Of a DNA stretch of 63,934 nucleotides, positions 12,624 through 49,449 are shown one piece after another. The stretch is from Vezdaea acicularis (Eukaryota), in the NCBI GenBank assembly GCA_026025075.1, contig JAPEUI010000094.1:1-63934 (forward strand), read 5' to 3'. Positions within the stretch are counted from its first letter, which is position 1, and every line of letters starts with the position of its first letter. The notes beneath the pieces are model-generated. The model ran no database searches. It was not told the origin of the DNA and saw nothing but the letters and a program-made list of their open reading frames with translations. The translations under genes were made by a program, and so were the position numbers.

Positions 12624-12794
12624 AGGATTGGTCCAAGACGGATACGACGCGAAAGCCCTCCTAGCAATGTCCTTAGAACTAGATAAGCAGCAAAGCGACT
12701 CTCCCATTTATTGCTTCGATTTCTAAGAAACGACCCTCTCACGTCAAGGCAAAAGTCTACCCAACACCGTCCCTGACCCAGACTACCCCACCTA

Positions 12795-14196: not shown

Positions 14197-14225
14197 GATG
14201 AGATAAGATGAGATAAGATGAGATT
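14197..14225 (+). repeat. Short tandem repeat (GATGAGATAA) x ~3
   Basis: agatgagataagatgagataagatgagatt. Confidence 0.6.
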
Positions 14226-19186: not shown

Positions 19187-19208
19187 GCTGCTGCTGCTGC
19201 TGCTGCTG
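19187..19208 (+). repeat. (CTG)n microsatellite, ~7 units
   Basis: gctgctgctgctgctgctgctg. Confidence 0.8.
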
Positions 19209-20099: not shown

Positions 20100-20140
20100 A
20101 AGCAGGCAAGCAGGCAGGCAGGCAGGCAGGCAGGAGGCAG
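20100..20140 (+). repeat. (GCAG)n-type microsatellite in the PLC1 upstream region
   Basis: agcaggcaagcaggcaggcaggcaggcaggcaggaggcag. Confidence 0.7.
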
Positions 20141-20707
20141 CAAGCAGCAAGCAACAAGCAGCAGCATCCAGCAGCGACGACCTCGCGCTCGCCAGCGCCC
20201 CCCCTTAGCCCGACTTCCCCTTCGGGCCTCTTGCATTGCGGGCTGCAGCGTCACCCAACATCGCCAGTCCACAACAATACGTCTCATGCCGAAACCGACC
20301 ACACATCTCTCGAGAGCCTGCATCGTCAGCATCCACTGCTAGGCACCGCGTGCGCCTCGACCCTTCCCTCCAATTGATCTCTTTGGTCCGTCCGTCTGCA
20401 CCCCGACTTTTCCTTTCTCACCACCGCCCGCCTTGATAGGCCCGCCAATTCCTCCGTGCGGCCGCGGGCCTGAGAATGTGTCCGTACACCAGAACCGCCT
20501 CCGTCGAATAGCCTCGATCCTACCTATTCCAACCAGACCTGCATCGTACGGCCGACGTCCGAGCACACACCCTCCCGCTTCCCTCCCGTTTGCCGACCTG
20601 GAGCTGGCTCCATCAGGTGTGGAGGAGATATCATAAAAACAGAAGACCCCCCGTGCTACACCACGGACGACTCCCAAGCAGAGTCAAGAATACACATCAC
20701 CGGCATC

Positions 20708-23700
20708 ATGGCGGCGGCCACATACAATCCAACAGCGCGGGTGACGGCCAAGGCGCACGACGATGCTCCTCCACCGCCCACCGCGTTTGCTCGAAAACCC
20801 AAGCCAGGTGTGGATGGTCTAGTGTTGTTGACCATCACGCCGGCCAGTGCGGGCAGCACATCAACAACGCCATCACCGCATGACAGCGATGCCGAAACTA
20901 CAAATACCTCCCTCCAAACATCTCCAGACGGGCCCCACGAAGGCATCAGCCCCGTTCTTCCCCCACCTCCTCTCATCCTACCCGATGCCGTCACGGCCAC
21001 CCCGACAACCAGCGCCATGAACGAGGCGATTGCGAAGGGGCCTGGTCTGATGCGGCGTATCTCCCGTGGCGCAGCCAGCAAGCTGACCCGTGGGCGGACC
21101 TCCTCGAATGCTCACAAGAACCGTGATCACAGCTCCGGACCGGCGGTCATGCGGCGGCAGAGTGACAGCACGGGCAAGTTGGAGAACGATGCCACCGCCC
21201 TGGACATTGACTCGGACGACGACATATATGGGGCGACGACCGATGTGGCATGCGTCGATGGTGCACGGGATGGCACGGTTAGTCCCGCGAGGGGCGCTCC
21301 CGGAAGTATCATCGGTATCGGACCCGTCATCCCCTCCAGTTTACAGAATGGAACGTACATGACGAAAGTGACCAAGAGAAGGAGGAAGATTCTCAAGTTT
21401 TCCATCGACGATGATTCGGCCAAGGTGTTTTGGGACCCGACCAAGTCGTCGAAGCACTTTTCCATCGATGAGATTACGGACATCCGCGTGGGACCAGAGG
21501 CAAGGAACTACCGGGAAGACGCCGGGATCTCCGCAGACACAGAAAGTCGATGGTTCACGATACTCTATACCCGTGAGCGCTCGAAAGGCCGTGTGCACAA
21601 GTTCCTGCACCTCATCACGGCGACAGAGACTATCATGGAGCTCTGGGTTTCAACATTGGAAGACATCCGTCGGCATCGGATGGCCATGGCGACCAACTTG
21701 GCTGAGCGTGGCGAGAGGTCTCTTGGAACTCACTGGCGGAAGGAGATTGCCAAACTCAATGCGAACCTGCCGCTGTCAGAGGAGATCGAGCACCTCAACT
21801 TTGAGCGGGTGGAGAGCCTCTGCCGAAGCCTTCATATCAACTGCTCGACAGGCTTCCTGAAGCAGAAGTTCGACAAGGCCGACAAGAACTCCGACGGCTA
21901 CCTTGACTTTACCGAGTTCAAGGACTTTGTCAAGCACGTCAAGGAGCGAGAGGATATCATCCAGGTATACGCCGATGTCGCAGCGGATGCGGAGAAAGGG
22001 ATAGACATCAACGACTTCCTTGCGTTCCTTCGCGACTCGCAAGGGGTCGACATCGAAACCAATCCACTGCGCTGGAAGGCCATATTCGAGAAGCTCGCAA
22101 GGAGATCGAAAAGCAAAACTCCCTCATCGTCCCCCATTGAGGAGGAGTCTTCGTTTCTTGACGTCGAAGCTTTCGCTTATTTCCTCTCTTCGGCTAAGCT
22201 GAGTCCCGCCCTGGTCACTGGCTCTCGCACAACAGCTCTGGATAGACCAATTAACGAGTACTTCATCTCAAGCTCGCACAATACATATCTGCTCGGAAGA
22301 CAGGTCGCCGGCGAGTCGAGTACAGAAGCATACATCCGAGCGCTTCAGCAGGGATGTCGATGCATCGAAGTGGACTGCTGGGATGGCTCCGATGGTCAGC
22401 CCTCAGTCAGCCATGGGCATACCATGACAAGCAGCATTCCCTTTGTCGATTGCATCGATGTCATCGGCAAATGGGCGTTCATATCCACGCCATATCCGTT
22501 GATCATCTCCCTGGAGGTGCACTGTAGTCCACCACAGCAAGAAAGGATGACTGAGATTCTGAAGGAGAAGCTGGGAGACCAGCTGATATTGGAGCCTATC
22601 ATGGCCAACCCTTTCTGCCTACCGTCTCCTGAGGACCTGAAAAATCGCATTCTCATCAAAGTGAAAGCTAGCGACGAGCCCGACAACTCATTGAACCAGC
22701 AGAGCTTGCCAGTTGGACGGACCCGTAGGGCCTTTAGCTCTCCTCTGTCCCGCCCCGTCGTCCTGGATAACGGCAACATCTCACCAGCACCACTCGTCGC
22801 GAGTCCTACTCCCATGAGTCCGGTAGAGAAGAACCCTGTGTCCCAGTTCAACGGACGGGCTCATATTCATGGCAGCACGGCAGCCAGCATCAGTAGCGCA
22901 ACAGAAGATAGCGACGGTAGAGAAACCAGCCTTGCCAGAGAGCCGAAGAAAAAGAGGCAAAGCAGCATTGTGCAGTCACTCGGAGAGCTTGGCGTATATG
23001 CTCGCGGCACAAGATTCAAGTATGACTTCCACACCGCGGAGAGCAAGAGACATAACCACATCTTCTCTTTGGCCGAACGGACTTTCGCCAAGGTTTGCAA
23101 TAGCCGCGACTTGAAGGACGAACTCGAAAGGCACAACATGCGTTACTTCATGCGAGTCTACCCATCCAACTTTCGCGTCAACTCCTCGAACTTCGACCCT
23201 CTCACCTTCTGGCGCCGCGGCGTCCAGATGGTCGCGCTGAACTGGCAGACCTACGATCAGCCGATGCAGCTCAATAACGCCATGTTCGCCGCCGGCAACG
23301 ACCGCACTGGCTACGTCCTCAAACCTCTCGAGCTCCGCCGTAAAGCCCACAGCATGGACGTTTTCCCTGACGGCGACTCTACCTCCACTACCGCCAAAGA
23401 GAAGAAACTCGTCGCCTTCTCCATCGAAGTCGTCTCCGCCCAGCAGCTCCCCCGTGCCAAAGGCACCAACCAAGACCAAGGCATCGCACCCTACATCGAG
23501 CTGGAGACCTTTTGCGCGGACGACAAGGCCAAGGGCGTCGCCAGCGGCGAAGGCGGCATGGACGCCTCTGCTCGCAACGGCATGTTCGGCCTGGGCTCCC
23601 CGCACCGTCGCCGCACCAAGATTGTGCCCTCGAATGGCTATTCGCCTGTCTTCCACGACAAGCTGACCGTCCGCCTCGAGACCAAATTCCCCTCTCTGGT

Positions 23701-24007
23701 CTTTGTGCGCTTCACAGTGCGGAACTCGCACGATGGGCGCTCGTACGCGGACCGCAACGGCGCTTTGGCGACCTTTACCGCGAAATTGAGCAGTCTACAG
23801 GAAGGGTATCGACATCTGCCGCTGCTCGATAACAACGGCGAGAAGTTCATGTTCTCGACGCTGTTCTGCAAGATCAAGAAAGAGGAGATTGGCCCCGTCA
23901 GCCGCGAGAGCAACGCCGCGGCGAAGGTCAACTCCCTGAAACAGGTGGGGCGCAGCATGTTCCAGCGCACGCTGTCGACAGAGCGGAAGGCGACGCCTGA
24001 CGAGTGA
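20708..24007 (+). CDS. PLC1: Phosphoinositide-specific phospholipase C (PH, EF-hand, X/Y catalytic and C2 domains)
   Basis: Uninterrupted 1099-aa ORF. EF-hand DKNSDGYLDFTEF; X box YFISSSHNTYLLGRQ, CIEVDCWDG, SHGHT, PLIISLEVHC; Y box MRVYP...SSNFDP...QMVALNWQTYD; C2 region EVVSAQQLP...GYRHLPL. Confidence 0.97.
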   Translation: MAAATYNPTARVTAKAHDDAPPPPTAFARKPKPGVDGLVLLTITPASAGSTSTTPSPHDSDAETTNTSLQTSPDGPHEGISPVLPPPPLILPDAVTATPTTSAMNEAIAKGPGLMRRISRGAASKLTRGRTSSNAHKNRDHSSGPAVMRRQSDSTGKLENDATALDIDSDDDIYGATTDVACVDGARDGTVSPARGAPGSIIGIGPVIPSSLQNGTYMTKVTKRRRKILKFSIDDDSAKVFWDPTKSSKHFSIDEITDIRVGPEARNYREDAGISADTESRWFTILYTRERSKGRVHKFLHLITATETIMELWVSTLEDIRRHRMAMATNLAERGERSLGTHWRKEIAKLNANLPLSEEIEHLNFERVESLCRSLHINCSTGFLKQKFDKADKNSDGYLDFTEFKDFVKHVKEREDIIQVYADVAADAEKGIDINDFLAFLRDSQGVDIETNPLRWKAIFEKLARRSKSKTPSSSPIEEESSFLDVEAFAYFLSSAKLSPALVTGSRTTALDRPINEYFISSSHNTYLLGRQVAGESSTEAYIRALQQGCRCIEVDCWDGSDGQPSVSHGHTMTSSIPFVDCIDVIGKWAFISTPYPLIISLEVHCSPPQQERMTEILKEKLGDQLILEPIMANPFCLPSPEDLKNRILIKVKASDEPDNSLNQQSLPVGRTRRAFSSPLSRPVVLDNGNISPAPLVASPTPMSPVEKNPVSQFNGRAHIHGSTAASISSATEDSDGRETSLAREPKKKRQSSIVQSLGELGVYARGTRFKYDFHTAESKRHNHIFSLAERTFAKVCNSRDLKDELERHNMRYFMRVYPSNFRVNSSNFDPLTFWRRGVQMVALNWQTYDQPMQLNNAMFAAGNDRTGYVLKPLELRRKAHSMDVFPDGDSTSTTAKEKKLVAFSIEVVSAQQLPRAKGTNQDQGIAPYIELETFCADDKAKGVASGEGGMDASARNGMFGLGSPHRRRTKIVPSNGYSPVFHDKLTVRLETKFPSLVFVRFTVRNSHDGRSYADRNGALATFTAKLSSLQEGYRHLPLLDNNGEKFMFSTLFCKIKKEEIGPVSRESNAAAKVNSLKQVGRSMFQRTLSTERKATPDE

Positions 24008-24976
24008 TGAATGGCTTCTTGCGTCGTTGACACGGCTTCTACCTCTTCTCCATCTGCGGTTTCTCTCTCCTTTCCGCCCTCGTCTTTCTTCTCCCGAGTG
24101 CACGGGATTCTTCACATATATTCTCCGACACACCTGCATATCATCCATTTTCATCCTCCTCGTCCTCGTCTCCTCCTCTCCTCCAGCTATGACGACCAGC
24201 TGGTACTCAATCTCTTGAAGTAATATTTAGCGTAACGACCCTCCGGCTCCCCAAAAAAAAAAGAAAGACGCCGCAGGCTCGGAATCTTCCCCCCCCTTTT
24301 TCTACGCGGGAAACGCTGCCTTTTTCGCACGTGCGTGTGCGCATGTATGTATATCATTGATGACCTGCATTTAAGCGACAAACAGGACTCGCTTTTTTCT
24401 TTGGCTCTTTGGCTCTTTTGCTCTTTGCTCTTTGCTTCGCTTGGCTGGCTAACTGAACGGGGCTGACTGGCTGGCTGGGTTGAACTTTACGTGGCAGAAA
24501 GCGGAAATGGCTGGGCTGCTTTTTCTGGGAAGCGTCTCAAGGATCAAAAAATTCTCTGTTTTTTCTTATCCTTGAATTTGACCCCCTTTTTCAACTCGTG
24601 GAAACGGGCGTGGCGCAATTTTCTACTCGCTTGCATCGGGGGCTAGGGATGGAATGAGGGCTTTTCATGGCATTTTTTCGAACTGAGCTGGGCTGAGCTT
24701 TTTTGGCTCTGGGAGCTTTTGTCTTCTCTTCTTTTTTAGGGGGGGTTATGTAAGGGGGGTTTTACGACGTTTCTGAGATGGGAGGGGGTAGGGTAGGGGT
24801 TACTCTCGACGGCCGCTCGAAATGAGCCGAGCTGAGTCGAGTTGATGAATAGAAAGTTGGATTCCCATTAACCGCTGCACATACATGAACCATAACACCG
24901 CGCCCTTACCCCCTCCCTTCCTTTCCATGAACCACCCTTTTCCCAAAAACCAACCAACCATCATACACTCCCCCCA

Positions 24977-26524
24977 TCAACTCCCCTCCAACTCCCCCCA
25001 CAAATTATTCAAACTCTCCGCCAGCGCCGGATGGGCCCATACCGCATCCCTCAGCCGCTGCCAGGGCACTTTACCCATAATCGCCATCTGGACAATACTC
25101 ATCACCTCCCCCCCTTCCACGCCCAAGACGCTAAAGCCCAGAATGCTTCCATCATCTATATCCACCACAGCTTTCATCAGCCCGCGACTCTCATCGAGTT
25201 CTAAGGCGCGCGCGACAGATGTCATAGGCAGGGATGCGGTGCGGATGCGGCGGGAGGGAAAGGTGGCACGGGCGGTGTGTTCGTGGAGGCCGATGTGGGC
25301 GAGTTGGGGGTCGGTGTAGACGACGTTGGGGACGAGGCGGGTTTTGGTTGATAGGAGGGGAGAGGGAGGGGAGAGGAGGTTTGCTTTGAGGATGCGGTGG
25401 TCGTCGTAGGATATGTGTGTGAATGCTGGAGGACCCTTTGCGTCGCCGAGGGCGTAGATGCCGGGAATGTTGGTTTCGAGGTGCTCGTTGACGAGGATGT
25501 GGCCACGGGGGTTGGTGGCGATGCCGGCAAGGGGGAGGTTGAGGGAGTCGGTGTTGGGGATGCGGCCGGTGGCGAAGAGAATGTGAGAGGGGTTGAGGGT
25601 TGGGGGGGAGGTGGTGGATGTGGTGGTGGTGGTGGGTTGGTAGGTGAGGGTGAGGGAGGGGGGGGAGGTGGTGGGGCTTGGGGAGAGGTGGAGGGGGGAG
25701 GTGTTGAGGTGGACGTCGATGCCGTCTTCGCGCAAGATGGAGAGGAGGGCGGCGGTGAGGTCGGGGTCTTCGCGGGGGAGGAGGCGGTCAGCACGTTGGA
25801 AGACGGTGACTTCGCTGCCGAGGCGGCGGAAGAGCTGGGCGAACTCGAGGCCGACGTAGCCGCCGCCGACGACGACGAGGTGGCGCGGGAGCACGGGGAG
25901 TTCCATGATGGAGGTCGAGTCGAGGATGAGCTCGGGCGCGACGGAGTCGATGCCGGGGAGGGCGGGTTTGGCGGGGCGCTCGCCGACGTTGATGAAGATG
26001 GAGGAGCCGGTGAGGGTTTGCTCGGAGCCGTCGTTCAGCTGGACGAGGAGCGTCTTGGCGTCCTTGAAGGAGGCGCTGCCCTTGAGCAGGTCGACGCCGG
26101 CAGAAGTGACGCGGTGTTCGATGCCACTGCGGAAGGAGGTGATGAGGTCGCGCTTGCGCTGGAGCACCTTGGCTATGTCGACGGAGATAATGCCGTCGGT
26201 CCCGCCGGGGGTATGGATACCGTAGTCGGCACCGCGGCGGGTGTGGTAGGCGATGCGCCCGCTGGTTATCATGGTCTTCGTGGGGAGGCAGCCTTCGTTG
26301 ACGCAGCAGCCGCCCATGTGGGAGCGTTCGATCAGGGCGGTCTTGCGGCCGGCTTTGGCGAAAGCGCCCGCGAGCGGGTTGCCAGCTTGGCCTGAGCCGA
26401 TGATGATGCAGTCATAGTGGGTTGGGGCGGCCATTGTGGTGGTGAAATGCCGGTGGGGGGGGATATCAGGGGTAATTGGTCGATAGTGTAGCTGCTTGAG
26501 TATCTGGGAAGCACGCAGGAGCAT
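24977..26524 (-). CDS. Flavoprotein pyridine-nucleotide disulfide oxidoreductase, bacterial 'mercuric reductase-like' subfamily
   Basis: Intronless 515-aa ORF with a second ATG at 26434. FAD motif IIGSGQAG, redox-active GGCCVNEGCLPTK, NAD(P) motif VVGGGYVGLE, ATGRIPN, ALGD, AFTHISYDD and C-terminal HPALAE. No C-terminal Cys-Cys pair. Confidence 0.9.
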   Translation of the reverse strand: MLLRASQILKQLHYRPITPDIPPHRHFTTTMAAPTHYDCIIIGSGQAGNPLAGAFAKAGRKTALIERSHMGGCCVNEGCLPTKTMITSGRIAYHTRRGADYGIHTPGGTDGIISVDIAKVLQRKRDLITSFRSGIEHRVTSAGVDLLKGSASFKDAKTLLVQLNDGSEQTLTGSSIFINVGERPAKPALPGIDSVAPELILDSTSIMELPVLPRHLVVVGGGYVGLEFAQLFRRLGSEVTVFQRADRLLPREDPDLTAALLSILREDGIDVHLNTSPLHLSPSPTTSPPSLTLTYQPTTTTTSTTSPPTLNPSHILFATGRIPNTDSLNLPLAGIATNPRGHILVNEHLETNIPGIYALGDAKGPPAFTHISYDDHRILKANLLSPPSPLLSTKTRLVPNVVYTDPQLAHIGLHEHTARATFPSRRIRTASLPMTSVARALELDESRGLMKAVVDIDDGSILGFSVLGVEGGEVMSIVQMAIMGKVPWQRLRDAVWAHPALAESLNNLWGELEGS

Positions 26525-34060: not shown

Positions 34061-35843
34061 ATGTCAGTGCCCTTACCTCCGCCGTTGTCTTCACCTTACC
34101 GGTCATCCAAGACGCTCCCTTACGAATTGCGGCAACACTGCTTGATCTATTTCGAAGAAGAGCTATGTAAGGAATATATACCTCTAGCTGTTCTAGCTAC
34201 TGATGAATATAATAGATACACAGGCCTTGACCCTTTTGCTGGATCTCCTGATAGCGGGCACGTCCTATCCATGCACAAACCCAGCCTATACCCCTCCCCC
34301 CCAACATCTTTCTCTAGCTTCGACTCTCCTCATTCATCCTTCTGTGACAACTCGCGCTATCTCAATCGACCGTCGGGATGTCTCTATCGTTTCTCTACGC
34401 CTACTGCGATCTGTATTGAAACAAGTTGGCCCAGTCAATGCTAGCCTGGACGTAGCATTTGCTTTCACAACACCAGCTTTCAACTCACGGCGCAATCGCA
34501 GCAGCACGACTCGTCGAGGCAGAGATACGGCGTCCGAGCATGGTGGTACGAAGGGCGAGACGGATTCTAACTTGATCATGTCAAACATTGCAAGGCAAGG
34601 CGGGATTTGGGCGAAAGCGGATGATTTCTGGCATTGTGTTGGGTGGGGCTTCAACTGCGCTTCTAAGCATCCAAAAAGATGGACACAGTGGAAAGTGTGG
34701 CTAGAATTCATGGTAGGAGCGCTAGAAGACGATTGGACAGAACGGTGGCGCCAGTATAAAATTGCGTTGGAAAGCAAATGGCGTATTGATAGGAAGATAA
34801 ATGGCGATCGGGATGGCTCTGAGAATTCAGAGGATGGCTCAAGGCTACTGCAAGAGAGCATGATTGCTACATATATATCTTGCGCCCTTCGACAATTTGG
34901 AGGTCCTCGCCGACTAGTGCGCTCTCTCTTCGCTGACGGGTCAGCCAACTCTCTAAACGAATTCGGCGAAATCTTCTCTGGCGAGACAAAGTCGGCGCCT
35001 CAGGATTCCTCGACTAGACTTTTAACCCCACGTATTCTGCCGGACGATCCTAGTGAAGGAGAAGAGTCAAAAATTGACATCAATGCAGACCTCTATGGTG
35101 ATTATCTGGACAATCGGCGTTCCTCATCCTCATCTCCCGAGCCAAATGTCCAAGTCACAACCTCTGCCCCCTTCACTGAGGGCTTGGAGCATTCTTCTCC
35201 ACGTTTTAGTGGGCCGGATATCGGCTTAACTCACCCTCTTCGTTCGCGTCTTATGTCCCTGATTAGCCTAACATCCTTCCATTTTTCCGCCTTGGAACTC
35301 TCTTCAGCGCAGGCCTCTTTCGAGATACTTCCCCTTGATGGGTTCTATAATGCGTTGATGGAACACGTACGACCCCTCCCACTTCCCGCTTTCTTTCTCT
35401 TCGCTACGCACACCCAACTTCGCGCCCTTCATTCGGATGGCTGCATCATGTTGTGGGAAGGGCTTCTCGAGGTTCTATTACCTGCATCAGCGCCAATACC
35501 ATCAAGCGTTCGTACGAAAGATAGAGGCACAGAGGAGAACGTACTCACACAAAATGTGCTAGAGACCTGTTACCTCCCGTTTCCTAGTAACAACAATAAT
35601 CTAATTGATAATGCAAAAGTTTCCCTACTCCTGGAAGGTTTAGTAGGGGTTCTCTTTGCGAGACGAGTCTTGGTCTGGACAAAACAGCTACAAGATGCTC
35701 TCGAAAACGGAATCGAGACAAGAATTAAGAAGGCTCACGACGGAAGGAGGAAGATGGGTATTGAGGAGAGTAGAATATGGCTGAGAGACAGCGCCGAGAG
35801 ATTAAGAGGTTACATGAGCATGTTACAATCGGGAGTGAGCTAA
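34061..35843 (+). CDS. Conserved fungal hypothetical protein (possibly Nse5-like Smc5/6 subunit; tentative)
   Basis: Exons 34061 (or 33986)-34166 and 34216-35843. Conserved-looking blocks PPPQHLSLASTLLIHP and DDFWHCVGWGFNCASKHPKRWTQWKVWLEFM. The gene is well supported; the family name is a guess from memory. Confidence 0.75.
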
Positions 35844-36129
35844 GACATAGTCGCTACAAAAAAATGCTATTGTAGGCTATCAACGGCTCATGATACATCT
35901 TTCACGGCTACTACATTGAATGTAATGAACTGGAGGCAAGATAATCTCAAGCAATGTGCAACAATGGACTCAAAGGCAGCCGATGAGCAGATCAGCAGGG
36001 ACGAGGAATCTCTCCTGAAAAGCTTACAGCTCAGGTCAATATTTGCCTAAATATAGAGAGCTAGCCTGGATATGAGACATCCACGAAGAACGTTTGAGTC
36101 ACCACTTTGACAAACATCAAATCAAGAGA

Positions 36130-37163
36130 CTATCTCTCCTCGCCAACACATCTAGTAATCTCAACGCCATCCTATAGTCGTTAGTATGGAACCATGATAG
36201 TGATCTTAAGTATCTTACCGGAATTCCTGTAGGCTCAAAACTTTTGACGAGCTTGCTTTCGTAGACGAGAAATGGATTGCCACGGATCTCTGTGTCGCCA
36301 CCATCTTCCCTCTCGTGACCAACCAGTGGATTCTCAACCCAACTGGCATGCTTCTCTCTGTACTTAGTGCTACCATCACCTCCTATTGAATACGACTTTT
36401 TCTTTTCGGTTACACTACTTCTTACGTACTCCAGATAGGGGGGATCTAGTGATTTAATTAGCTTCAGAAAGCGGACATTTTGAAGGGACAATTCCATACT
36501 TCCTGGTTTGATCACGTTGTCTGCAGCTAGCACAGTGCCTGGCCTCACCAATCGCAAATATTCACACAGCTTCAGATCCGTGAGATAAGCGGGCTTGTGG
36601 TGGTCTAGAAACAAGAGATCGATGTGAAGTAGTCTACCATCCATATGAAGGCGTTTCAAGCTCTCACTACTTGGTCCGACTTCGACCTGCACAATGCCTT
36701 GCAGTCCAGCCAAGTTGACTAAGGAGCTGACAACAGCTGCAAATTCAGGGCTTCTCTCGAGCGAGTAGTATCGGGTTCCACCTGCGGCCCTCAGTGCATT
36801 ACCAAAGAGCACCGCTGAATACCCAACATAGCCTCCTAATTCAACCATTATCTGAGGTTTGACCTCTGCGATGAGATCTGTAACAATTTTGCCCTTGTCT
36901 TCGCCTACATTCATAAGGTATTTCTTCTTTCGTCCATATTCATCTATTGCTTGCAGTACTCTTGTAGGGGATCCACGAATGTCGGCAAGAGAGGGATGAT
37001 TGTAGACGAAATGAAGAAGCTCGATCTCACGGCCATCATCATACTAATCGAAGAGTTCAGTAATGTTCCCCTTGCAGCTCCGTTGCAATTAAAAGTCGGA
37101 AAACGAACATACGTACACGTCTTCTTGTGAAGCGTAGGCTTTCTCCTGATTGAAGTCTGACAT
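36130..37163 (-). CDS. Catechol-O-methyltransferase-like O-methyltransferase (mycosporine O-MT, MysB-like role)
   Basis: Spliced gene reading MSDFNQEKAY...DDGREIELLHFV...YLMNVGEDKG, VELGGYVGYSA, LFLDHHKPAYLTD, ADNVIKPGNPPY, DGVEITRC. Divergent from DDGS. Confidence 0.9.
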
Positions 37164-38304
37164 CCTGATATAGTGGTATTGATACAGCCGTGATCTCAGC
37201 AGTCTGGGCAGCTTGAGCTGAGTAAAAAGTTTATGGGCTATAACATAAGCATGTCAAGCGATAGATAACTAGGGAAAGCAGCTTTACGGCATTTCCCTGC
37301 TCTAGTCTGATAACCTTCAGGCCCGTGCCATTATTATTGGCACATACAGGGGTGTAGCGGAGACTATCAGACGTTGCTCAGCATTCTCATTCTTGTTTCC
37401 AATTTTGCCCTCTGACTATCATTTCATGCTGTGCTACATACTTCGTGTGGAATCACGCCATCTTCGGGTTGCACGCAGCCTTTAGACCTGTCTAGTGCAT
37501 TTGGCAATAGTGTTGAGATCATCACTATGCACAGGCTGCAAGCTAAGTAATACATGGGTCAAGAAACCCGCAGTTTGCATCAAGTCATAGTGGTTGTGAC
37601 ATCAACTCGCAACATCGGAACCCCAGATTCTGACGACATGACACTGTCGTCCCCCGTAACGCTAGTGATGCCAAGAGTCAAATCCCTGTCAGACATTGGT
37701 CGGCGGATCTGAGCGATCTGATGAGGTTAACTTAATCTTCATCGAAATCAAAGGCCGATCGGTAGAACCCATTGTGATTCGAAGAACAACGCATACACAG
37801 AAGCACGTACTAGGAAACTTCTAGCGCGCCTTCTCCAAGATAGTGCAACGATTCTGAATGCCAGCGTAGCAGCCATATTCGATACGAGATTATGATGTTC
37901 CTGGAGATCATCTCCTGCATGATGAAGACTAGGGAGACGCCGGCTTTTTGCCCTCAAAGCCTAACCGCATGGATGCCATCGTCCTCACTTGCCTGCTGTT
38001 CTTCTTGTGAGGTGCTACAGGTGCGGGAAAGGGCTTTGCACTAGTCCACAGCGGATACTAACTTAGGAACTGCGCTCATTGATCCGTCATCCACTCAGGG
38101 CTTCGACCTACCGTTTCTAGACTGCCCATGGGCTCTAGAGGCGACATCCTTGCGGGACGGCTCTATAATAGAGCCTTCGTGACGTTCGTAAGCTCTAGCG
38201 TATGTGGAAGGGCTTGAGTACAGTTTATCAAACTATTCGAGGCTTTGTTGTCAAACCTTAGCCCAAACGACTCAGTCACAGTCTACATATCTCATCTCGT
38301 CAAG

Positions 38305-39918
38305 ATGTCTGATATGCAGGCATCAGTTTTAGAGACGAAGAACGGCTTCCATGTATCTGGTTACGAGAAAATCGACTATGGCTTCCAGTTTATCAGCGGC
38401 ATCTTCGACATTGCCAATCCTGATTTGGCTAACCAATACAAATCTTGGGGACGGGTCTTGTGAGGACTCTTAACTGGTGACGTTAAGATTAGCTGCTAAC
38501 ATCATCTTCGTCAGGGCTGTCACGGACTTGAATGTATTTAATATATACGGGGACGAGATGGAAGCATACTTCAAGCAATATGGCCTGAAGTTGAAGATCC
38601 ACAAAACCAAGATTGGCGAGAAAGCCAAAACTATCGATACCTTCTTAAGTATTGTCGACTCCATGACGGAGTTTGGCATCTATCGAAAGGTACTCAGAAG
38701 TATCCTGAGCTTGCTTCACAAACAGAGCTTACATTCACTAGGAGCCAGTCTTAGTCGTCGGTGGAGGACTCGTCACAGACGTCGCCGGGTAAGTTTAAAA
38801 GCAAGGCCAGTGAGATCCATTTCGAGGCTGATCCCTTAACCTCCAGATTCGCCTGCGCAGCGTACCGCCGTAACACCAATTTTATTCGAATACCTACGAC
38901 TGTAATTGGCTTGATCGACGCTTCAGTCTCCATAAAGGTAGCGGTCAATTATGGTAACTATAAGAACCGATTAGGTGCTTATCATGCGCCAATAATGACA
39001 TTCTTGGACTTTAATTTCCTCAAAACATTACCAATTGCCCAAGTGCGTAACGGCTTTGCAGAGTTGATCAAGATCTCCACCTGTGGCCATCTTGAGACCT
39101 TCGATCTTCTGGATAAGTATTGCGAAAGCCTCATAGAGTCAAAGTTTGGGCGCAAGGATGGCACACCCGCAGCAATTCGCGAAGTCGCGGATAAGATCAA
39201 TAGAAGTGGTATATATGAGATGCTGAAGCTAGAGACGCCAAACCTTCATGAGATTGGGCTTGACCGAGTCATTGCCTATGGTCATACGTAAGCAGCTAGT
39301 TCATTGTAAATGGAACCGTTAACTAAATCGTGTCACAGGTGGTCGCCGTTGCATGAGCTGACTCCCCAAACCCCTTTGCGCCACGGCCATGCAATCTCGA
39401 TCGATATGGCGTATTCCGCTACCTTAGCAAATAACAGAAAGTTGATCACTGACACTGAGCATTTCCGGATATTGAATCTCTTCTCCCGTGCAGGTCTGTC
39501 CATGGATCATCATCAATTCGACGAAGAGATGCTCGCCAAAGGTACTGCTGCTATCATGAAGACCCGTGATGGTAAACTTCGTGCCGCTGTGCCAAGTCCA
39601 ATCGGAACTTGCACATTCTTGAATGATGTAAGCGCCTCCGAGATGAACGACGCGCTCAGACGGCACAAACATCTCATGCAGGAATACCCTCGTCAGGGAG
39701 AGGGATTGGAAGCTTACGTTGATTCCTCTGATACCGGTTACACGGAGAACGGAAAAGAGATTGAGGCAACTATAAAGACGAATGGTGTTACGAACGGCGT
39801 CAATGGTCACAAATTCAGCAATGAGCCTAGCAAGTCCATGGGTGTTGATAGTGCCGGACTCCTCAATAGGACGAATGGTATCATCAATCATCCGGTAGAA
39901 GGAGTGGTCGTACCTTAG
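38305..39918 (+). CDS. Demethyl-4-deoxygadusol synthase (sedoheptulose 7-phosphate cyclase, MysA-like)
   Basis: Five exons. [85 protein letters not shown]...VIAYGHTWSP (DDGS-type PNLHE signature), [11 protein letters not shown]. Confidence 0.95.
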
Positions 39919-40279: not shown

Positions 40280-41776
40280 ATGGCCAAAAACGACCTTCCT
40301 GTGCTCTCATCTGGGATGAACAGCTTCGTTCTTCTGATTTTGTCCCTCATCTTTCTTCCCTTCGACACCTTTATCCTTTTTTATAGCTATGCCCTTCGCC
40401 CTCTATTCTCGCGGCGTTCTCAACGCGCCAGTGCGCTCCGTGACCCCGCTTTCACCCCACGAACAGTTCTTATTACAGGCCTTTCCATGGCGAAAGGCCT
40501 TGCACTCGCGCGCGCTTTCCACAACACGGGCCACTCCGTCATTGGCGCAGACTTCGAAGACTATCGCATCCCTGTAAATGGTCGCTTCTCTCGATCTCTC
40601 AAAAGATTCTACAAATTACCACGCCCTACTGCTGGAGAAAGTGGAGGGCTAAAGTACATCGAGAGTCTCCTATCGATAATTACGAGTGAAAGTTGCCAGC
40701 TCTGGGTGTCGTGCTCAGGCGTAACGGAGGCGAGCGAAGATGGGGAAGCGGCCGAACTGATCAAGCGATTGACGAGGTGCAAGGTGGTGCAATTTGAGCG
40801 CCAATTGGTGGACACCCTACATGAGAAGCAATCGTTCATAGAGAAGACAAAAGCGCTGGGCTTACAGGTCCCAGAGACGCATCCCGTGACGTCAACAGAG
40901 GATGCCCTACGGCTCCTTGAGAGCAAGAAAGACGAAGAGCGGTACATCCTCAAAAGCGTGCACTACGACAATGCAACGAGGGGCGATATGACACTCCTTC
41001 CTCTTCAAACGCCGGCGAAGACAGAGGGGTACTTGTCAAAGCTAGATATCTCACTGTTGAACCCGTGGGTCCTGCAGCAGTTCATTTCAGGCAAGGAGTA
41101 TTGCACGCACGCTCTCGTCCTGAAAAACGAGATCAGGGCGTTCGTTGCATGTCCCTCCAGCGACCTGCTAATGCATTATCAAGCGCTCCCAGTGGACTCC
41201 GGACTCGCCCAATCGATGCTAGCGTTCACGAAAGAGTTTATGAGAGGAATCGAAGAAGAGATGACAGGACATTTGAGCTTTGATTTCTTAGTGAGGGAGA
41301 AAGCGACGAAGAATGGGGTCGTGCAAGTCTTGTATTGTATCGAGTGTAACCCAAGAGCGCATACTGCTGTTGTGCTGTTTGAAGATGTAGCAGACGTTCT
41401 AATTAGGGCTTATATGGATCTATTGTTGCCAGAGTTACCTTTGGACGATGGATTTGTAGGGAATCCGGCGTTTCTCAAGGAACCGAGGAGTAAGTATTGG
41501 ATTGGCCATGATTTGGTCTCTTTCGTGTTACATCCACTACTAAAGCTATTGGCTGGACGTGGTAGTTTCAAGCAATTCCAAGAAAGCATGGGCGTCTTTA
41601 TGGAGCATGTTTTATTTTGGAGGGATGGTACTTTTGAGCTCTGGGACCCCTTACCTTGGTGGGCGCTGTACCATATCTATTTCCCCGCGCATTTCCTATT
41701 GGCGATCTTTACAGGCAAAAGGTGGAGTAGAATAAATGTGAGCACTTCGAAATTCTGGTTACTGGCTGATAGTTGA
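40280..41776 (+). CDS. ATP-grasp amino acid ligase (mycosporine synthase, MysC-like)
   Basis: Intronless 498 aa. Hydrophobic N-terminus, VLITGLSMAKGLALARAF, GRFSRS, LHEKQSF, YILKS, WVLQQFISGKEYCTHA, TGHLSFDF, IECNPRAHTA, YWIGHDL, WDPLPWW. Confidence 0.92.
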   Translation: MAKNDLPVLSSGMNSFVLLILSLIFLPFDTFILFYSYALRPLFSRRSQRASALRDPAFTPRTVLITGLSMAKGLALARAFHNTGHSVIGADFEDYRIPVNGRFSRSLKRFYKLPRPTAGESGGLKYIESLLSIITSESCQLWVSCSGVTEASEDGEAAELIKRLTRCKVVQFERQLVDTLHEKQSFIEKTKALGLQVPETHPVTSTEDALRLLESKKDEERYILKSVHYDNATRGDMTLLPLQTPAKTEGYLSKLDISLLNPWVLQQFISGKEYCTHALVLKNEIRAFVACPSSDLLMHYQALPVDSGLAQSMLAFTKEFMRGIEEEMTGHLSFDFLVREKATKNGVVQVLYCIECNPRAHTAVVLFEDVADVLIRAYMDLLLPELPLDDGFVGNPAFLKEPRSKYWIGHDLVSFVLHPLLKLLAGRGSFKQFQESMGVFMEHVLFWRDGTFELWDPLPWWALYHIYFPAHFLLAIFTGKRWSRINVSTSKFWLLADS

Positions 41777-41883: not shown

Positions 41884-44800
41884 TTAGCCAACCTCTTCGT
41901 TGATTCCCATGCTTCTCTCCATCCACCGATAAATGAGTTTAAAATGTTCCTCAGTAATCGGGCCGACTTTCTTGAGCGTTGGTGCCACCTGCTCGGTATA
42001 TCTGGTGTCAAATGTTAAGTTTGTCTTTGCTGCTGCGGAGGATATATCGGGAGCGTAGCTCTGCCTCCAAAGATTCAATAATCTAAGGCTCGGATGACTT
42101 TCTCCTCTCGCTTCCATCGACTTTAGCCTCTCAACCCAAATTGATGGCGGGACGATGTCGAAATTCAGAGGCGAAAGACGACGAAGCCACGCAAGGAGGT
42201 CGACCCATCTCGCGGTTTTGTCATTGTTAAATAGGTGGTACACCTGAATTTTCGATTCATCTTCGCTTCCGAGCTTATGTCCACTGCCATGAGTGGCAAT
42301 CTCGAGTATTGCGGCTGCTGCAAGATCTATCGGAAACCATGCCAATACCTTATTCCTCAAGTTAATTAGAGTTCGCCCTCGCGGCACGTTGATTAGGTAT
42401 CGACTAACATCATCAAGGTCTGGTAAAGACCTGGTCCTGGTCATACTCGAGAGCATTAAGGGCCAAGCTTCATTAGCGTTCCAAATCCCTTTCTCGGTAT
42501 CTCCACAAAGCTGGCCAACCCTTACTATTACTATACGGCCACGTAGACGAGTGCTGTTTTGTGCTTGGTCACACATTTTTTCCGCAACCCATTTTGAACG
42601 TGAGTAGCCAAGGCTTGATGCAGATTCAGGATCGTTGTAGATTTTTTCCAACACGAGGTTATTTGGGGAGGCATTTATCACACTGGCCACAGATGAGCAG
42701 AATAAGAAGGCTGGTGGCTTTTGTCTTGGGGATTGAAGAGAGAAGTTGATAAGGTTTTGGAGGCCGCGGATATGATCTCTTACGAAGCTCTCAAGCGGCA
42801 TGCTAAAGTTAACTGCCCAAGCCGCCTAAAGTAGAGAAGCTATTAAGTAGTATGATAGCTCAGACTTATGGAGATTGAACTTACGTGAATGACAAGAGTT
42901 GCTTGGCTTAAAATATCGTTGTGCTGATCATTACTTAGACCTAGCCTCGGGTCCACAATATTTGCCTCGATGCAGATGACTCGATCGCTCGAAGGGAGTA
43001 ACGGGGGTTTTCCTCTTGCCAGTAGACTTCTGCAAACCCTGGTTAATGGTGAGCTCTCTCCTTTCTGGCGCACAAGGCAGTAGACTCGGTGTACATCCTC
43101 TCGCATCCGCAGCAAGTCTAGAATGTATGCGCCAAGTGCGCCTGTAGCGCCTGTCAGAATCTAATGACTGTTACCATTACTTCACTCGTATGGCAAATCT
43201 TCTATGTCTTACCACAGTCTCACCCTGCGGCTCGTGGATAGCTCCATTGGCGATGATTCCAGAATGCTCCGAGCTGTCAAATTTGCCATAATCTTCAGCT
43301 AATCTTTTCATAAGCTTTACATTATCCGATTTGGATGGAACACAATTATCTCGAAGACGTAAGAAATATGTTATCAATCTACTCATACTTAGTATCAAGA
43401 GAATCTACACAAACACAGAACTACATACCGACGGAGGTTTACGTTATCATATACGACATTCAAGGGTAGTATATTTATGTGCAGTTTCTGCTGCCATGCT
43501 TAGCTCCATGGAAAATACTGATTAGGAATTATCTCTTGCCTTTTGAAGATTCGTGCGTATTCTGATGCATACAATCGAATCGATCCCAGCTAAGAAGAAG
43601 TCTGTATCCATATCTAGATCATGTATTCCCGAAGCAAGTCGTACTGTCTCGCAGACAGCATTCTCGATAGCTTTATCGGTCATCGGATCGAAGAAAACCT
43701 CCTGGGGGTACGCATCCGATTCTTTCAGTCTTTCGTAGGCCTGCGAGATCTCTTCTTGAAATCTCTCCTCTACAGCGCCACGCAGAACCGTTCCCTTGCT
43801 ACTCTTCTCGTAGAGCAGTTTCTCAACTGGAAGAGCGATGAGCATATTTCGGGCAAGCCTTGCATGGTGCTGGCTCTGTCTATTTAAAGCTTCCACATTA
43901 GGCCAGATAGCTGAAACGAGCTCCTCATCAGTGAGTCCTGCTCTGGCCTGCGATCGAAACAGGAGGGCGCCAGGAAAATTTCGGCCATTTCCAAAGAGAA
44001 CGACGTCGTCGATCAGCGACAAGGTACCAAGAGCAGCTTCCAACGGAGCAGGATCGAACTTTTTTCCCGTGACTAAAGTTAGTTGGGAGTCGGCTCGAGA
44101 GTGATACCGCCAAGCATTTGGAATAACAGGATGAGGGATAAATAGGTCTGATGTAGCAAAAGACCCATCCGTACGGTTGGTCTTAGCCTATTTTGAAGTA
44201 TAAGTCGAGGAATGGCTAGCTCTCACGAATTGCTCACCAAAAACGGCCAATCTGGTAGCACGACCAACTCGAATGTACCATCACCTTGTGGCTCAAAGGC
44301 TAGGGACCTCGTTCCTTGCGGACAACGAAGGTACTGCCACTCAGTATCATGGCTGTAATCGCGGTGAGAACACAACAGGACTTATCAAAGGTGAGTAAGG
44401 AGAAAATCTCAGAGGTTGTAGAATACACTGACAGCCACATTCTATGCTGCCAAACCTCGAAACTAAATTTATCTTCTCTGAGACGAGGTGGTCTCCTAGT
44501 GACGCAGGTAACGCAGCGCCTCCTACACCGACAAGGTCCATTTGCTTTAGCAATGCCATACCAGCGTCATCTTCGGCCATCATTTGCAGGACATACGGCA
44601 CTGAGGAGAAGCACACTATTTCTCTATCAATCTTCGCTTCTTGAGCGGCCTTCAAACATCTGATGATATTTGTTGACGTGATAGGCATCCTCCCTGGAAA
44701 AAGCCAGATCATAGCGTCGCTTGTCCAAGCTCGAAATACGTCAGCGGTACCCCCGTGATAGAGAGGAGTCGTCGTAAAAGATGCGGTCTTTCGCTGTATG

Positions 44801-45648
44801 CTTGGGAGACATGGCAGTGCCCCAACTGCTGCCCTGTGGGTCTGGGGAATTGGTTTCGGGAGTCCAGATGATGTACCAGAGGTGTGATGCAGATAAGCGA
44901 CATCAGTCTCTTGTGCCGTATAGGTGGGTCGCCATGCTATCGTCCCTTGTGGAGACGTCTTTAACGTGTCTTCAGTGGGAGCGGGAAGAGAAATGGCTTT
45001 CAAAGGTGCAAGCAATAAGTCGTAACCATCCAAAGATGCTAGAGCAAAAGCATCGTGGGCTAGCTTGCCGTAAGAAGCATCGAAGAAGAGAATATTGATG
45101 GTACATGTCTTGCATAACTGTAAGACTGCTTTCGGCTGACATTGAGGCCTATCAGGCTAGTGAGTTCAAGGGTTTGGCATATTGATGTGCATCAGATGCT
45201 ATAAATTGGAAGACAAACGCTATGAGCAGGGTACTGAAGCCAAGTCTCAATAGACCCAGCCACGAGAGGAGAAACTCTGCAGAGCTAGGACATAGCAGCG
45301 CCACGCAACAGGACTTTATATCCACGTTGCGATGCTCGACTGCCACTTGCATCAGGTCATTAAGCTGTTCAGCCGTCGTCAAAGAAGCATCGCGAAGCTG
45401 CTTGAAGGCTGGAAAATCTATTAGGGTAAATCAGATATTCGAGAGGTCTTCAGATTACTCAAAACACGTGCATCCCATTTGCCACCTTCAGTGTGTGAAG
45501 GATATGGTAGACCGACCGCCGGAGTGGATGGACATTTTTGAGCTTGAAAGTCTAAGAATTCGTTGACAGTAGAGTATTTGTGGGGGCTCTGTTTATTTAG
45601 AACAGCAGCGTGACCGAGAGTGCAAGTGAAATAGTTAATTTCATCCAT
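41884..45648 (-). CDS. NRPS-like enzyme with A-T-R architecture (carboxylic acid reductase type)
   Basis: About nine exons splice into one frame. A domain AYLHHTSGTSSGLPKPIPQTH, PLYHGG, SRFGSIECG, FATSDLF, TGKKFDP; carrier domain DFFLAGIDSI; reductase ILTGATGALG, IHAAWAVNF, GYSRSKWVAE, RVGQLCGD. Confidence 0.92.
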
Positions 45649-47329: not shown

Positions 47330-49449
47330 CTATGTAGCGGTCGGATCTAATGTGACAGCCAGGGCAAGTATGGCACCAAGGCCACCAATCACGATTCCCC
47401 CCAATGCTGTTGCGAAACTCAATGGGCGTGACGTAGTTTTGGCCTTCTTTCTGGGCGGTTCCTCGGTCTGAATTGCATCGGCTTGAGAATTAGAGCTTGC
47501 TCCCGACATTTCGAGCCGAATCAGCTCATGCCCTAGACCTTCAGGGTGTATTCCCAACATAGTAATATCTTCTGCTACTTGTAGTTCCGGAGTCTTATTC
47601 CTTCGTTGAAGAGGGGCCTGGCAGGCTTGTTCTTCAAAGATGGAGGTAGGGGTTTTCTCGAAAGTGGCCCATGACTCATCTTCGGGGTTGATCAAAGTGG
47701 AGATAGAGATAGCTTTCCTCTTTTGACCCGCTACAGTCGGCAGGGGGGAAGATGGAATTGCTGTCTTCGTACAGTGAGTTACCGCTTTATAATCTCCTGA
47801 GGGGCTGGGCCCAACTCCAACTGAGGAAATTGGCATGAAGGTCGAGATCGGTGGTATAGCTGGAGTACCTGAGAACTGTCTTCGATTCTCTTCACGGGAG
47901 CTGAAAAACATGCCTTTCCCGTGTTTATCATCCAGCTCTCGTGCACGCGCTGCCCTGGTGGTGTTGTCGTCGAAAGTACCGAGGGAGCTATGGTGTTGGG
48001 TTTCAGCAAACGATGAGTACTGTACACTATCAAGAACTTCATGTATCTCCTTGGCCGTCTTTTGTTCGAATGCATATAGCTCTTCTGTCGTGAGCGAAGA
48101 AGTCTCTTTGAGAGGCCCGGGGCTACTTGAAGTGCTCTCCGCGGCATTTCCTCCAGTCGAGTTAGCGCTGAACCATGACTCGCCGGGGATATTAGAATAA
48201 GTTTTGGGCAGCGGGGGATCTATGTTGAGCTCGGATAGGTCATCTTCCTCATCCGTTATGTCTGCGTCCTCATCGGAGTCAAAGACTTCGTCGGACTCTT
48301 CTCCGGAAACATCCCATCCGCAATCACGCGACGTAAAACTTGTTGGGTATCGCGGCACTTTAGTGGACGCAGATCCCGTCAAAGCATCCGCACCAATCTG
48401 CTCTTCCGGCGTCTGTTGTATATTAAGTGGGAGCTGGTGGAATATAGGCTCCATAATTGGTCCTTCCAAGGAACTATCTTCATCGCTACTGTCGATCAAA
48501 ACAGGGTTGTCGATGTCTTTGCCCGAGAAACCTGTATCCCTTATGGTGCTGCTATCTCTAGCATCTGGCATTGCCGGAATAGACTCTGGATTCATAGGTG
48601 GGCTCGAGGGTGCAAAGGTTTGGTTGAAGCTATCTTCATCCTCACTAATAGATTCTTCGCTCGCCTCAGCTTCCTCATCCACATCGTTATCGTCTGAATC
48701 CGGTACACTGAAGCGGTTGCTTGTAGCCGGATTTGAATCTGGCGTAATGGGCCTAGACGACTATGGTCAGTATGCCCCATGGCTCAAACCAAAACTTTTC
48801 ACAGAGGAGGTTCTTACCTTATCGAGTTCCAGCTGAACTCGACACAGAAAGATCGTGCAGGAAATACCTCTGATGTGAATAGTTAGTATTGGATTTCCTA
48901 TAATAAGATGAGAAACCTGCCCAAGCCACGAGAGACTTCACAGCCAAACTTTATAATTGAACCGTTCTTGATCTTCGTTGCCACATGTTTCTCTAGTCGC
49001 TTTGAATCGATAAAGCTACCATGCATAGATGCAGTATCGGTGACATACACAGCCTTCACAGCAACATCAGTATGGTCTTTAGAAATATGAGAATTTTTCG
49101 TACTTGCGGAGATGATGTGAAAGATATCTCTGCGTGTGATCTGGACATGACAGGGCTATCGAACCAAGCGTTATCGGCGGAGGGGTGTATATTCTTCACC
49201 TCGCTCCGTGATGATCTACCCACTTGCAAAGTCTGAGAATCCGACGTGAGAAGTATCGTACGAATTCGCGGATCCTCAGATGGTCCGGTTGGAGTCAAAC
49301 GGAGCTCAAGTGCTTGGGAGATATTAGCTAAGGCTTTGTTCGGAGCTGTTCACTCAAAGAAGGAGCTAAAGTGGTAGAGCTGCCGCAAAAGGCCACAAGA
49401 TCGAACTTTGGATCTTTTACAGGGTTGGCCTACCTTGATTACTTGCCAT
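47330..49449 (-). CDS. FHA-domain protein with an acidic low-complexity middle and a C-terminal TM anchor
   Basis: Spliced 5' exons give LQVGRSS, FDSPVMSRSHAEI and DTASMHGSF (FHA GR / SRxH / SxxG motifs). Long last exon ends FATALGGIVIGGLGAILALAV. Confidence 0.8.

Follow-up and report, generated by a model that had tools for sequence, protein, structure and literature searches.

Which enzyme converts the amino-acid moiety of fungal mycosporines into an alcohol is the question raised by a locus in a stretch of 63,934 nucleotides from Vezdaea acicularis (NCBI GenBank assembly GCA_026025075.1, contig JAPEUI010000094.1, positions 1 to 63,934 of the forward strand), referred to here as the window. 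Fungal and lichen mycosporines usually bear amino alcohols (glutaminol, glutamicol, serinol) and glucosides of these in place of amino acids. In the window, a gene for a nonribosomal peptide synthetase (NRPS)-like carboxylate reductase, with adenylation, carrier and reductase domains (A-T-R), is physically part of a mycosporine island, as the fourth gene there. The enzyme may make amino-alcohol mycosporines by reducing the conjugate formed by the ATP-grasp ligase of the same island, a reading that was judged to fall a little short of an even chance; membership in the pathway, the substrate and a two-step reduction are what we infer. A literature search, with most subscription journals outside its coverage, found no paper assigning the reduction to amino-alcohol mycosporines, and the first-pass annotation of the window had likewise regarded this step as not firmly assigned.

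The island consists of the following genes, with ordinary or housekeeping genes on both sides:

36120-37043, minus strand: O-methyltransferase (OMT), Pfam Methyltransf_3 / Methyltransf_24, divergent from DDGS
approximately 38218-39918, plus strand: DDGS, a DHQS-like sedoheptulose-7-phosphate cyclase, multi-exon with approximate bounds, Pfam DHQ_synthase and DHQS_C on two exons
40280-41776, plus strand: ATP-grasp ligase of the MysC/ATPG type, single exon, 498 aa, convergent with the A-T-R gene
41884..45648, minus strand: A-T-R gene (NRPS-like carboxylate reductase), 10 exons and 9 introns with modelled splice sites, about 1089 aa

The ATP-grasp open reading frame (ORF) gave no Pfam match; it has 1294 homologues, is about 50% identical to fungal ATP-grasp proteins and is 100% identical to the public protein P0121. 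Between the stop codons of the ATP-grasp and A-T-R genes 107 bp were measured, in agreement with the initial estimate of about 110 bp.

The same neighbourhood was searched for in other fungi. An alignment of 21 fungal ATP-grasp proteins (alignment A1) led to 80 metagenome loci, extending at most 10 kb to each side, which were searched with the four proteins of the window and which dereplicate to 54 groups at 95% nucleotide identity. The window DDGS was 61–83% identical to the DDGS stretches of these loci. An A-T-R gene was present within the recovered stretch in 4 of the 54 groups, and together with the window these display five gene orders, all with the A-T-R gene within 10 kb of the mycosporine core (ATPG, ATP-grasp; ATR, A-T-R; GT8, family-8 glycosyltransferase):

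window: OMT(-) DDGS(+) ATPG(+) ATR(-)
L056 (group L056/57/59): ATR DDGS OMT ATPG
L060: DDGS OMT ATPG GT8 ATR
L067: ATPG ATR DDGS OMT
L043: ATR DDGS ... ATPG, the A-T-R gene adjoining DDGS and the contig ending within the A-T-R gene

Placement within 10 kb by chance was estimated at about 6e-4 per genome, for a genome of about 35 Mb, so the linkage of the A-T-R gene to mycosporine genes is not attributable to chance. The differing gene orders suggest that the linkage was kept through rearrangements or gained repeatedly. The linked copies carry TTTPLYHGG, RFGSAECG, EWQYLR and GKKFDP and are placed within the family tree, with median identities to the family of 42–51%, similar to that of the window copy, and the best matches of the L043 copy include Coniosporium and Cryomyces.

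Looser linkage was found in named genomes, which were compared by locus tags, accession numbers and contigs, the numbering being assumed to follow gene order; the ATP-grasp list and the two A-T-R lists used for this purpose each hold the best 120 of about 1000 matches. Of the 13 named genomes of lichens or rock fungi, 5 have the A-T-R and ATP-grasp genes on one contig, 15–38 gene numbers apart:

Caeruleum heppii: same contig, gap of 38 tags or accessions
Pycnora praestabilis: same contig, gap of 30 tags or accessions
Candelina mexicana: same contig, gap of 33 tags or accessions
Xylographa bjoerkii: same contig, gap of 24 tags or accessions
Xylographa opegraphella: same contig, gap of 15 tags or accessions

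An association of this kind is also hinted at in the literature. In the parts of PMC8403587 concerned, NRPS-like genes are said to be able to form clusters for mycosporine-like amino acids (MAAs), with most genomes of the Hypoxylaceae containing homologues; two cluster families from this group, of four clusters each, are placed under NRPS/NRPS-like and tied to "yet unidentified mycosporine-like compounds". No role is given there to the NRPS-like gene; the wording suggests that it lies beside mycosporine genes, which those parts do not state outright.

The product of the window gene was characterized by scanning Pfam exon by exon and by reading motif positions directly from the sequence:

43726..45648, minus strand: adenylation (ANL) domain, Pfam AMP-binding and PF23562
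44886-44851, minus strand: A3 motif HTSGTSSGLPKP
44775-44749, minus strand: A4-position motif TTTPLYHGG
44091-43726, minus strand: AMP-binding_C_3, holding EKSSKGT with the putative A10 lysine codon at 43797-43795
43379..43659, minus strand: carrier (T) domain, cut by two introns, with PP-binding on exon 5 residues 177-216
43578-43576, minus strand: phosphopantetheine serine codon of GIDS, aligned with GVDS in the homologues
43428-43379, minus strand: second intron of the carrier domain, GT-AG
41887..43160, minus strand: thioester reductase (R) domain of the short-chain dehydrogenase/reductase (SDR) type, NAD_binding_4 and Epimerase
43154-43131, minus strand: TGATGALG, the nucleotide-binding motif TGxxGxxG of the R domain
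42606-42592, minus strand: YSRSK, the YxxxK motif of the R domain

The Pfam matches were AMP-binding (E 3e-11), AMP-binding_C_3 (PF23562, E 2.5e-39), PP-binding (E 8e-4) and NAD_binding_4 on two exons (E 1.5e-17 and 6e-15), plus Epimerase; no condensation (C) or thioesterase (TE) domain was found in the Pfam scan of the A-T-R exons. These matches and motif positions bear out the earlier description of 41884..45648 as encoding intact adenylation, GxDS carrier and SDR (TGxxGxxG, YxxxK) domains. Within the adenylation domain, RFGSIECG straddles the exon 3/4 junction, and the YHSRADSQLTL and GKKFDP motifs are also present, aligned with 21 homologues. The C-terminal helical part of the R domain, of about 150 aa, is common to the R domains of fungal carboxylate reductases (CARs).

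The integrity of the gene depends on an unusual intron. Translation begins with the ATG at 45648 and ends at the stop codon 41886-41884, and the modelled exons are:

45648-45459, 45408-45219, 45148-44433, 44380-44238, 44187-43540, minus strand: A-T-R exons 1-5
43487-43429, 43378-43213, 43160-42885, 42825-42409, 42348-41884 (stop included), minus strand: A-T-R exons 6-10

Short spliceosomal introns occur in the window DNA, and in the modelled gene eight of the nine introns are GT-AG, of 46–70 nt, and one is GC-AG. Immediately after the predicted GC-AG intron (43539-43488, donor AAG/GCAAGA at 43539), the carrier domain contains a micro-exon of 59 nt (43487-43429). A GT donor in place of the GC donor is not possible because of an in-frame stop at 43524-43522, and the acceptor of the intron is of the NAGNAG kind (CAG/CAG at 43491/43488), alternative use of which would give 1090 aa. 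The micro-exon encodes KLHINILPLNVVYDNVNLRR and supplies the LPLNVVYD stretch, which aligns with LPLNVVxDCG, present in all homologues, and the carrier domain is complete only if the GC-AG intron and the micro-exon are included. All exon junctions were found to be in register with 21 full-length homologues (alignment A2). Across about 200 family members, 225 of the 238 columns conserved at 95% or more are kept in the window protein; the 13 mismatches are mostly conservative, other divergent rows having a median of 2 mismatches and at most 20. Since these losses lie inside the range of other divergent members, the gene is considered intact rather than decaying. None of the matches listed for exon 3 was more than 58% identical to the window protein, so an intact product of this gene is seemingly absent from the protein collection, and a GC-AG intron missed by gene callers may be the reason.

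The homologues form a recognizable group. The search with exon 3 returned 1032 proteins, of which the best 120 were all 51–58% identical and nearly all had the same A-T-R Pfam set; no characterized name appeared among these 120, the public annotation being "putative NRPS-like protein biosynthetic cluster". The named matches listed belong to Dothideomycetes, Chaetothyriales, lichen-forming classes and Lachnellula, and a second search with a Xylographa member as query listed many further lichen fungi. The median full-length identity of the window protein to the family was about 44.5%, and it has the hallmarks of the orthogroup: NYFxCTLGQA (with GHA for GQA), TTTPLYHGG, EWQYLR, YHSRADSQLTL-GKKFDP and EKSSKGT. 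On a FastTree tree of 202 rows, built with no outgroup, the class labels need a minimum of 4 changes, compared with a shuffled mean of 33, and the window protein lies nearest to lichen rows, on a long branch. The fit of the class labels and the shared motifs indicate one vertically inherited ascomycete orthogroup, and the window enzyme is a new member of a well-known kind, the stand-alone fungal carboxylate reductases. Several lineages with members in the orthogroup are reported to make glutaminol or glutamicol mycosporines, including those of Hortaea werneckii and Aureobasidium (10.1101/2025.07.21.665953, PMC4227064) and rock-inhabiting black fungi; the same is reported for the Dermatocarpon lichen lineage (PMC6471344).

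Given the linkage of the A-T-R gene to mycosporine genes, the simplest substrate would be the ATP-grasp product, with its amino-acid moiety reacting at the alpha-carboxylate, and the nature of the substrate was approached through the adenylation domain. At the A4 position the window protein and every aligned homologue have TTTPLYHGG, as judged by sequence alignment, and the closest solved structures to the N-terminal A core, searched with the family profile, were 4-coumarate-CoA ligases and fatty-acid transport protein / acyl-CoA synthetase. Amino-acid-activating NRPS A domains carry FDxS at A4, where the aspartate binds the alpha-amino group of the substrate; TPLYHGG at this position is presumably of the acyl-CoA-ligase type. 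An adenylation domain of this kind favours an acid without a free alpha-ammonium group, and therefore an N-substituted acid such as mycosporine-Glu or mycosporine-Gln over a free amino acid. For the R domain, the family profile matched 8aep_A best (E 3e-53), followed by MxaA (4u7w, E 8e-39) and then by bacterial CARs, with 5msc also matched; 8aep is deposited as "acetyl-CoA synthetase-like protein" and is taken by us to be the Neurospora CAR reductase domain. A single-exon query gave no match to solved structures at E 1e-3, and the ESM Atlas (query P0043) returned only clusters of the same architecture, from Ascomycota, Basidiomycota and bacteria, with no functional lead. In the R-domain alignment the family has RVGQL opposite FR[SC]DMIL of bacterial CARs and RPGRV of MxaA. 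The aspartate of the bacterial motif may block over-reduction of the aldehyde, and the comparison serves as a lead only.

A route can be proposed from these features. DDGS and OMT would yield 4-deoxygadusol, to which the ATP-grasp ligase would couple Glu, Gln or Ser. The A domain would then adenylate the free alpha-carboxylate of the mycosporine-amino acid, the acyl group would be loaded onto the phosphopantetheine arm at the GIDS serine, and the R domain would reduce the thioester with NADPH to an aldehyde. Reduction of the aldehyde to the primary alcohol, by the same R domain or by a separate aldehyde reductase, would give mycosporine-glutaminol, -glutamicol or -serinol, and the new CH2OH group would be a possible acceptor for glucosylation. 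Genes that might serve the later steps were found around the metagenome clusters in a Pfam scan of 59 flanking ORFs, seven of which were compared by tblastn with all 80 loci. A family-8 glycosyltransferase gene adjoins the ATP-grasp gene in L060:12721-13764 (minus strand) and L053:3102-4100 (plus strand), in L060 between ATP-grasp and A-T-R, and is a candidate for the mycosporine glucosyltransferase. An aldo/keto reductase gene 1 kb from ATP-grasp in L067 and a zinc-dependent alcohol dehydrogenase gene 3 kb from it in L056 are candidates for the reduction of the aldehyde. Among the accessory genes, the A-T-R gene is the only one whose product can activate and reduce a carboxylate. If the glucose of mycosporine-glutaminol-glucoside is attached to the reduced carboxyl carbon, the L060 trio of ATP-grasp, glycosyltransferase and A-T-R would correspond to the needs of a mycosporine-glutaminol-glucoside pathway.

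A proposal of wider reach is that the orthogroup as a whole represents the mycosporine-amino-acid reductase that has been missing, whose one R domain would proceed to the primary alcohol and whose gene would have been drawn repeatedly into the cluster as an accessory module; this is advanced tentatively, at well under an even chance. The reduction of the carboxyl group of mycosporine-Gln, -Glu or -Ser was already suggested in the first-pass annotation, and the completeness of the A-T-R protein and the non-random linkage speak for it, whereas the lack of an A-T-R gene at most clusters and a published result from Phaffia speak against it.

The observations that weigh against conjugate reduction also bear on a rival judged somewhat less likely, namely that the A-T-R enzyme is an unrelated neighbour that reduces some other cellular or secondary-metabolite acid and owes its adjacency to inherited regional synteny and local rearrangement. 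No A-T-R gene was seen within the recovered stretch in 50 of the 54 metagenome groups, and of the 14 groups in which ATP-grasp is flanked by 8 kb or more in both directions, 3 have it and 11 do not. Lack of linkage between orthologues and DDGS clusters had been named at the outset as evidence against a role in the pathway, and it is what the majority of these well-flanked clusters display. Because it is absent beside most mycosporine clusters, the A-T-R gene is best regarded as an accessory and not a core member. The tight linkage represents about three independent lineages and not five, since the copies of L056, L060 and L067 group with the two Lachnellula proteins in a single clade of six rows that has 99% local support, and the boundary of the orthogroup itself rests on motifs, on full-length identities of 42–60% and on a tree that has no outgroup. 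In the remaining 8 of the 13 named genomes the A-T-R and ATP-grasp genes are on different contigs, several of which are only 11–30 kb long and hence little informative on linkage:

X. trunciseda, Lambiella insularis, Circinaria calcarea, Icmadophila ericetorum: different contigs
Sclerophora amabilis, Candelaria pacifica, Candelina submexicana, Elasticomyces elasticus: different contigs

No further contig is common to the ATP-grasp list and both A-T-R lists among the matches listed, and the distance of 15–38 genes in the five lichens could be plain inherited synteny. The ATP-grasp list names 43 taxa; an A-T-R match is also listed for 14 of them, counting the window, and none is listed for the other 29. 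The latter include the Teloschistaceae, with 17 assemblies in the ATP-grasp list and none in either A-T-R list, among the matches listed; Circinaria and Heterodermia, whose locus-tag prefixes are of the same style, do appear in the A-T-R lists, and a Teloschistaceae orthologue would be expected above the Dothideomycete matches in the search with the Xylographa query, which argues against strict co-occurrence. The A-T-R gene tree, moreover, tracks class-level taxonomy as that of a conserved single-copy gene would. Promoter comparison gave no sign of shared regulation words: between the region upstream of the A-T-R gene and the OMT-DDGS and DDGS-ATPG intergenic regions, shared words were within the shuffled range (11 common 9-mers, where shuffled sequences gave 7.3 on average and 19 at most), no 8-mer occurred in all three regions, and the A-T-R upstream region and the OMT-DDGS promoter share no k-mers beyond the shuffled expectation.

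The published data contradict the simplest form of the reductase idea, which the comparative data support in part. DDGS, OMT and ATP-grasp of Phaffia alone are reported to yield mycosporine-glutaminol in Saccharomyces cerevisiae (PMC10057719), a result in which three genes suffice. In the passages concerned, the same paper states that the ATP-grasp enzyme "incorporates glutaminol", does not name the source of glutaminol, describes fungal clusters as holding only three core genes, and presents the Phaffia mycosporine glucosyltransferase as unlinked and unidentified. Products were identified by retention in reversed-phase high-performance liquid chromatography (RP-HPLC), by co-injection or co-migration and by ultraviolet scans, with no mass spectrometry in the text of that section. 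The two forms, acid and alcohol, are 14 Da apart and may not be separated by the HPLC method, so the result is serious but not decisive. Against an unrelated neighbour stands the tight linkage in five gene orders and at least three lineages, for which chance or passive synteny is an inadequate explanation. The A-T-R gene lies inside the cluster and not at its edge in L060 and L067, and no polyketide synthase (PKS) or NRPS that could supply another substrate is near it in the window. A weaker argument is that no Aspergillus, Penicillium, Fusarium, Neurospora or yeast names were found among the 240 matches listed in the two A-T-R searches, unlike what a general housekeeping gene would give.

Unlikely, though drawing equally on the linkage evidence, is a second rival, in which the A-T-R enzyme first reduces free Ser, Gln or Glu to the amino aldehyde or alcohol (the free amino acid was also named as a substrate in the first-pass annotation) and the ATP-grasp ligase joins the resulting serinol, glutaminol or glutamicol to 4-deoxygadusol. 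S. cerevisiae is not known to contain glutaminol. The "incorporates glutaminol" wording agrees with this order of events, and clade I fungal A-T-R enzymes (LnaA, HqlA, AsaC, 03009/06235) are described in PMC9605436 as reducing free Ala/Val/Ser, Leu/Ile, Tyr and Phe. Against it stands the adenylation domain, whose TPLYHGG motif at A4 and whose closest solved relatives, 4-coumarate-CoA ligases and fatty-acid transport protein / acyl-CoA synthetase, do not look like those of the amino-acid-activating NRPS type. Free amino aldehydes are, in addition, reactive and cyclize or dimerize, as in the piperazine pathways covered in PMC9605436, and the Phaffia result in S. cerevisiae is left unexplained by this order as well. 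A third rival, that the enzyme adds a second amino acid to form an imino-mycosporine (MAA) as MysE does in Anabaena, or performs another tailoring step, is very improbable: cyanobacterial shinorine clusters do have an NRPS-like gene beside DDGS, OMT and ATP-grasp (PMC10057719), and PMC8403587 ties NRPS-like clusters to mycosporine-like compounds by way of Miyamoto et al. 2014, on actinomycete clusters, but the window protein ends in an NAD(P)-dependent reductase and not a thioesterase, has no condensation domain and has an A domain that is apparently not of the amino-acid type, and only aminocyclohexenones are described from fungi in the part of PMC10057719 concerned.

If reduction of the ATP-grasp conjugate by the A-T-R enzyme were borne out, it would explain why the side chain of fungal and lichen mycosporines is an amino alcohol, the feature by which they differ from the MAAs of bacteria and algae, and it would account for the hydroxyl needed by the clustered family-8 glycosyltransferase. 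It would also make the pathway complete for producing mycosporine-glutaminol(-glucoside) sunscreens in heterologous hosts, extend the fungal carboxylate reductases to a new class of substrate and explain why genome-mining tools sometimes flag mycosporine clusters as "NRPS-like". The candidate gene has orthologues in tractable black yeasts. If the proposal is false, the Phaffia result stands and the place to look for the reduction is the ATP-grasp step or the enzymes of the host.

The genes around the island are of mixed kinds. Upstream are a pyridine-nucleotide disulphide oxidoreductase, LepA, a HORMA protein, a PALP enzyme and ketol-acid reductoisomerase (KARI); downstream are a TPR protein and an ORF with aminotransferase IV and PLD domains. 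The low-complexity ORFs at 34197-35840 (plus strand) and 47333-48760 (minus strand) were rejected as cluster members, having no Pfam family and no counterpart at the 80 related loci. Elsewhere in the window, positions 10000-26000 have a G+C content of 0.57–0.63, compared with 0.45–0.51 in the rest; ORFs of at least 200 aa at 15.2–20.0 kb have no Pfam family and are followed by a PI-PLC gene at 20474-24007.

Other genes recur around the fungal mycosporine clusters, whose periphery varies. A GFO/IDH/MocA oxidoreductase gene, a second recurrent accessory gene, lies directly beside OMT in five groups that lack an A-T-R gene (L014, L017/L019, L033/L035/L036, L046 and L005; for example L033:4060-4791, minus strand). 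A separate AMP-binding gene, acyl-CoA-synthetase-like, is present in L033:2013-3053 (plus strand) and also in L035 and L036; it is two genes from OMT, adjoins the GFO/IDH/MocA gene and is not similar to the A-T-R gene at E 1e-5. A DUF3112 (PF11309) membrane protein follows ATP-grasp in four groups (L004-L010, L076, L002/L003/L027, L005, L037; for example L004:12337-13452, plus strand), is fused to ATP-grasp in the public gene models P0141 and P0202, and may act as a mycosporine transporter or anchor. In L002, L003 and L027 an ATP-grasp homologue (50% identical to that of the window) is followed by DUF3112, and neither DDGS nor OMT lies within 10 kb of it in either direction; it is either a lone copy or part of a split cluster. 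A short-chain dehydrogenase (adh_short) gene is directly downstream of ATP-grasp in three groups (L012/L013:12050-12928, plus strand, L023 and L070). The Hortaea werneckii models P0261, P0266 and P0272, of 807–814 aa, are named catechol O-methyltransferase and cluster with the ATP-grasp protein, OMT and ATP-grasp being either fused or merged by annotation.

Among known systems, the terminal reductase of myxalamid synthetase, MxaA (4u7w), matches the R domain of the window protein over the whole Rossmann and substrate half. In MxaA a thioester on the carrier is reduced with four electrons to a primary alcohol. This domain stands at the end of a bacterial PKS/NRPS assembly line, whereas the window enzyme is a stand-alone A-T-R protein, and the similarity is silent on whether one or two reductions take place. 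MysE (Ava_3855-type) of the cyanobacterial shinorine clusters is, like the window enzyme, an adenylating, carrier-containing protein encoded beside DDGS, OMT and ATP-grasp. MysE has the architecture A-T-TE and adds serine to mycosporine-glycine; the window protein ends in NAD_binding_4/Epimerase, with no thioesterase match on any exon, and its A domain is acyl-CoA-ligase-like. The fungal CARs (A-T-R enzymes such as NcCAR, with seven clades distinguished in PMC9605436) share the architecture and motifs of the window protein; those described there act on aryl, aliphatic, aminoadipate and free amino-acid substrates, usually with release of the aldehyde, whereas the substrate proposed here would be an enaminone-linked amino acid and the end product an alcohol. 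The glycine betaine reductase ATRR (bioRxiv 10.1101/559534) is a stand-alone fungal NRPS-like enzyme that converts a small polar carboxylate to an alcohol, as proposed here, but it is built as A-T-R1-R2, with a second R domain for the aldehyde step, whereas the window protein and its homologues end about 150 aa after a single R core. The three-gene cluster of Phaffia rhodozyma (PMC10057719), finally, has DDGS, OMT and ATP-grasp as the window does, and is reported to make mycosporine-glutaminol(-glucoside) without an A-T-R gene, which the window adds as a fourth.

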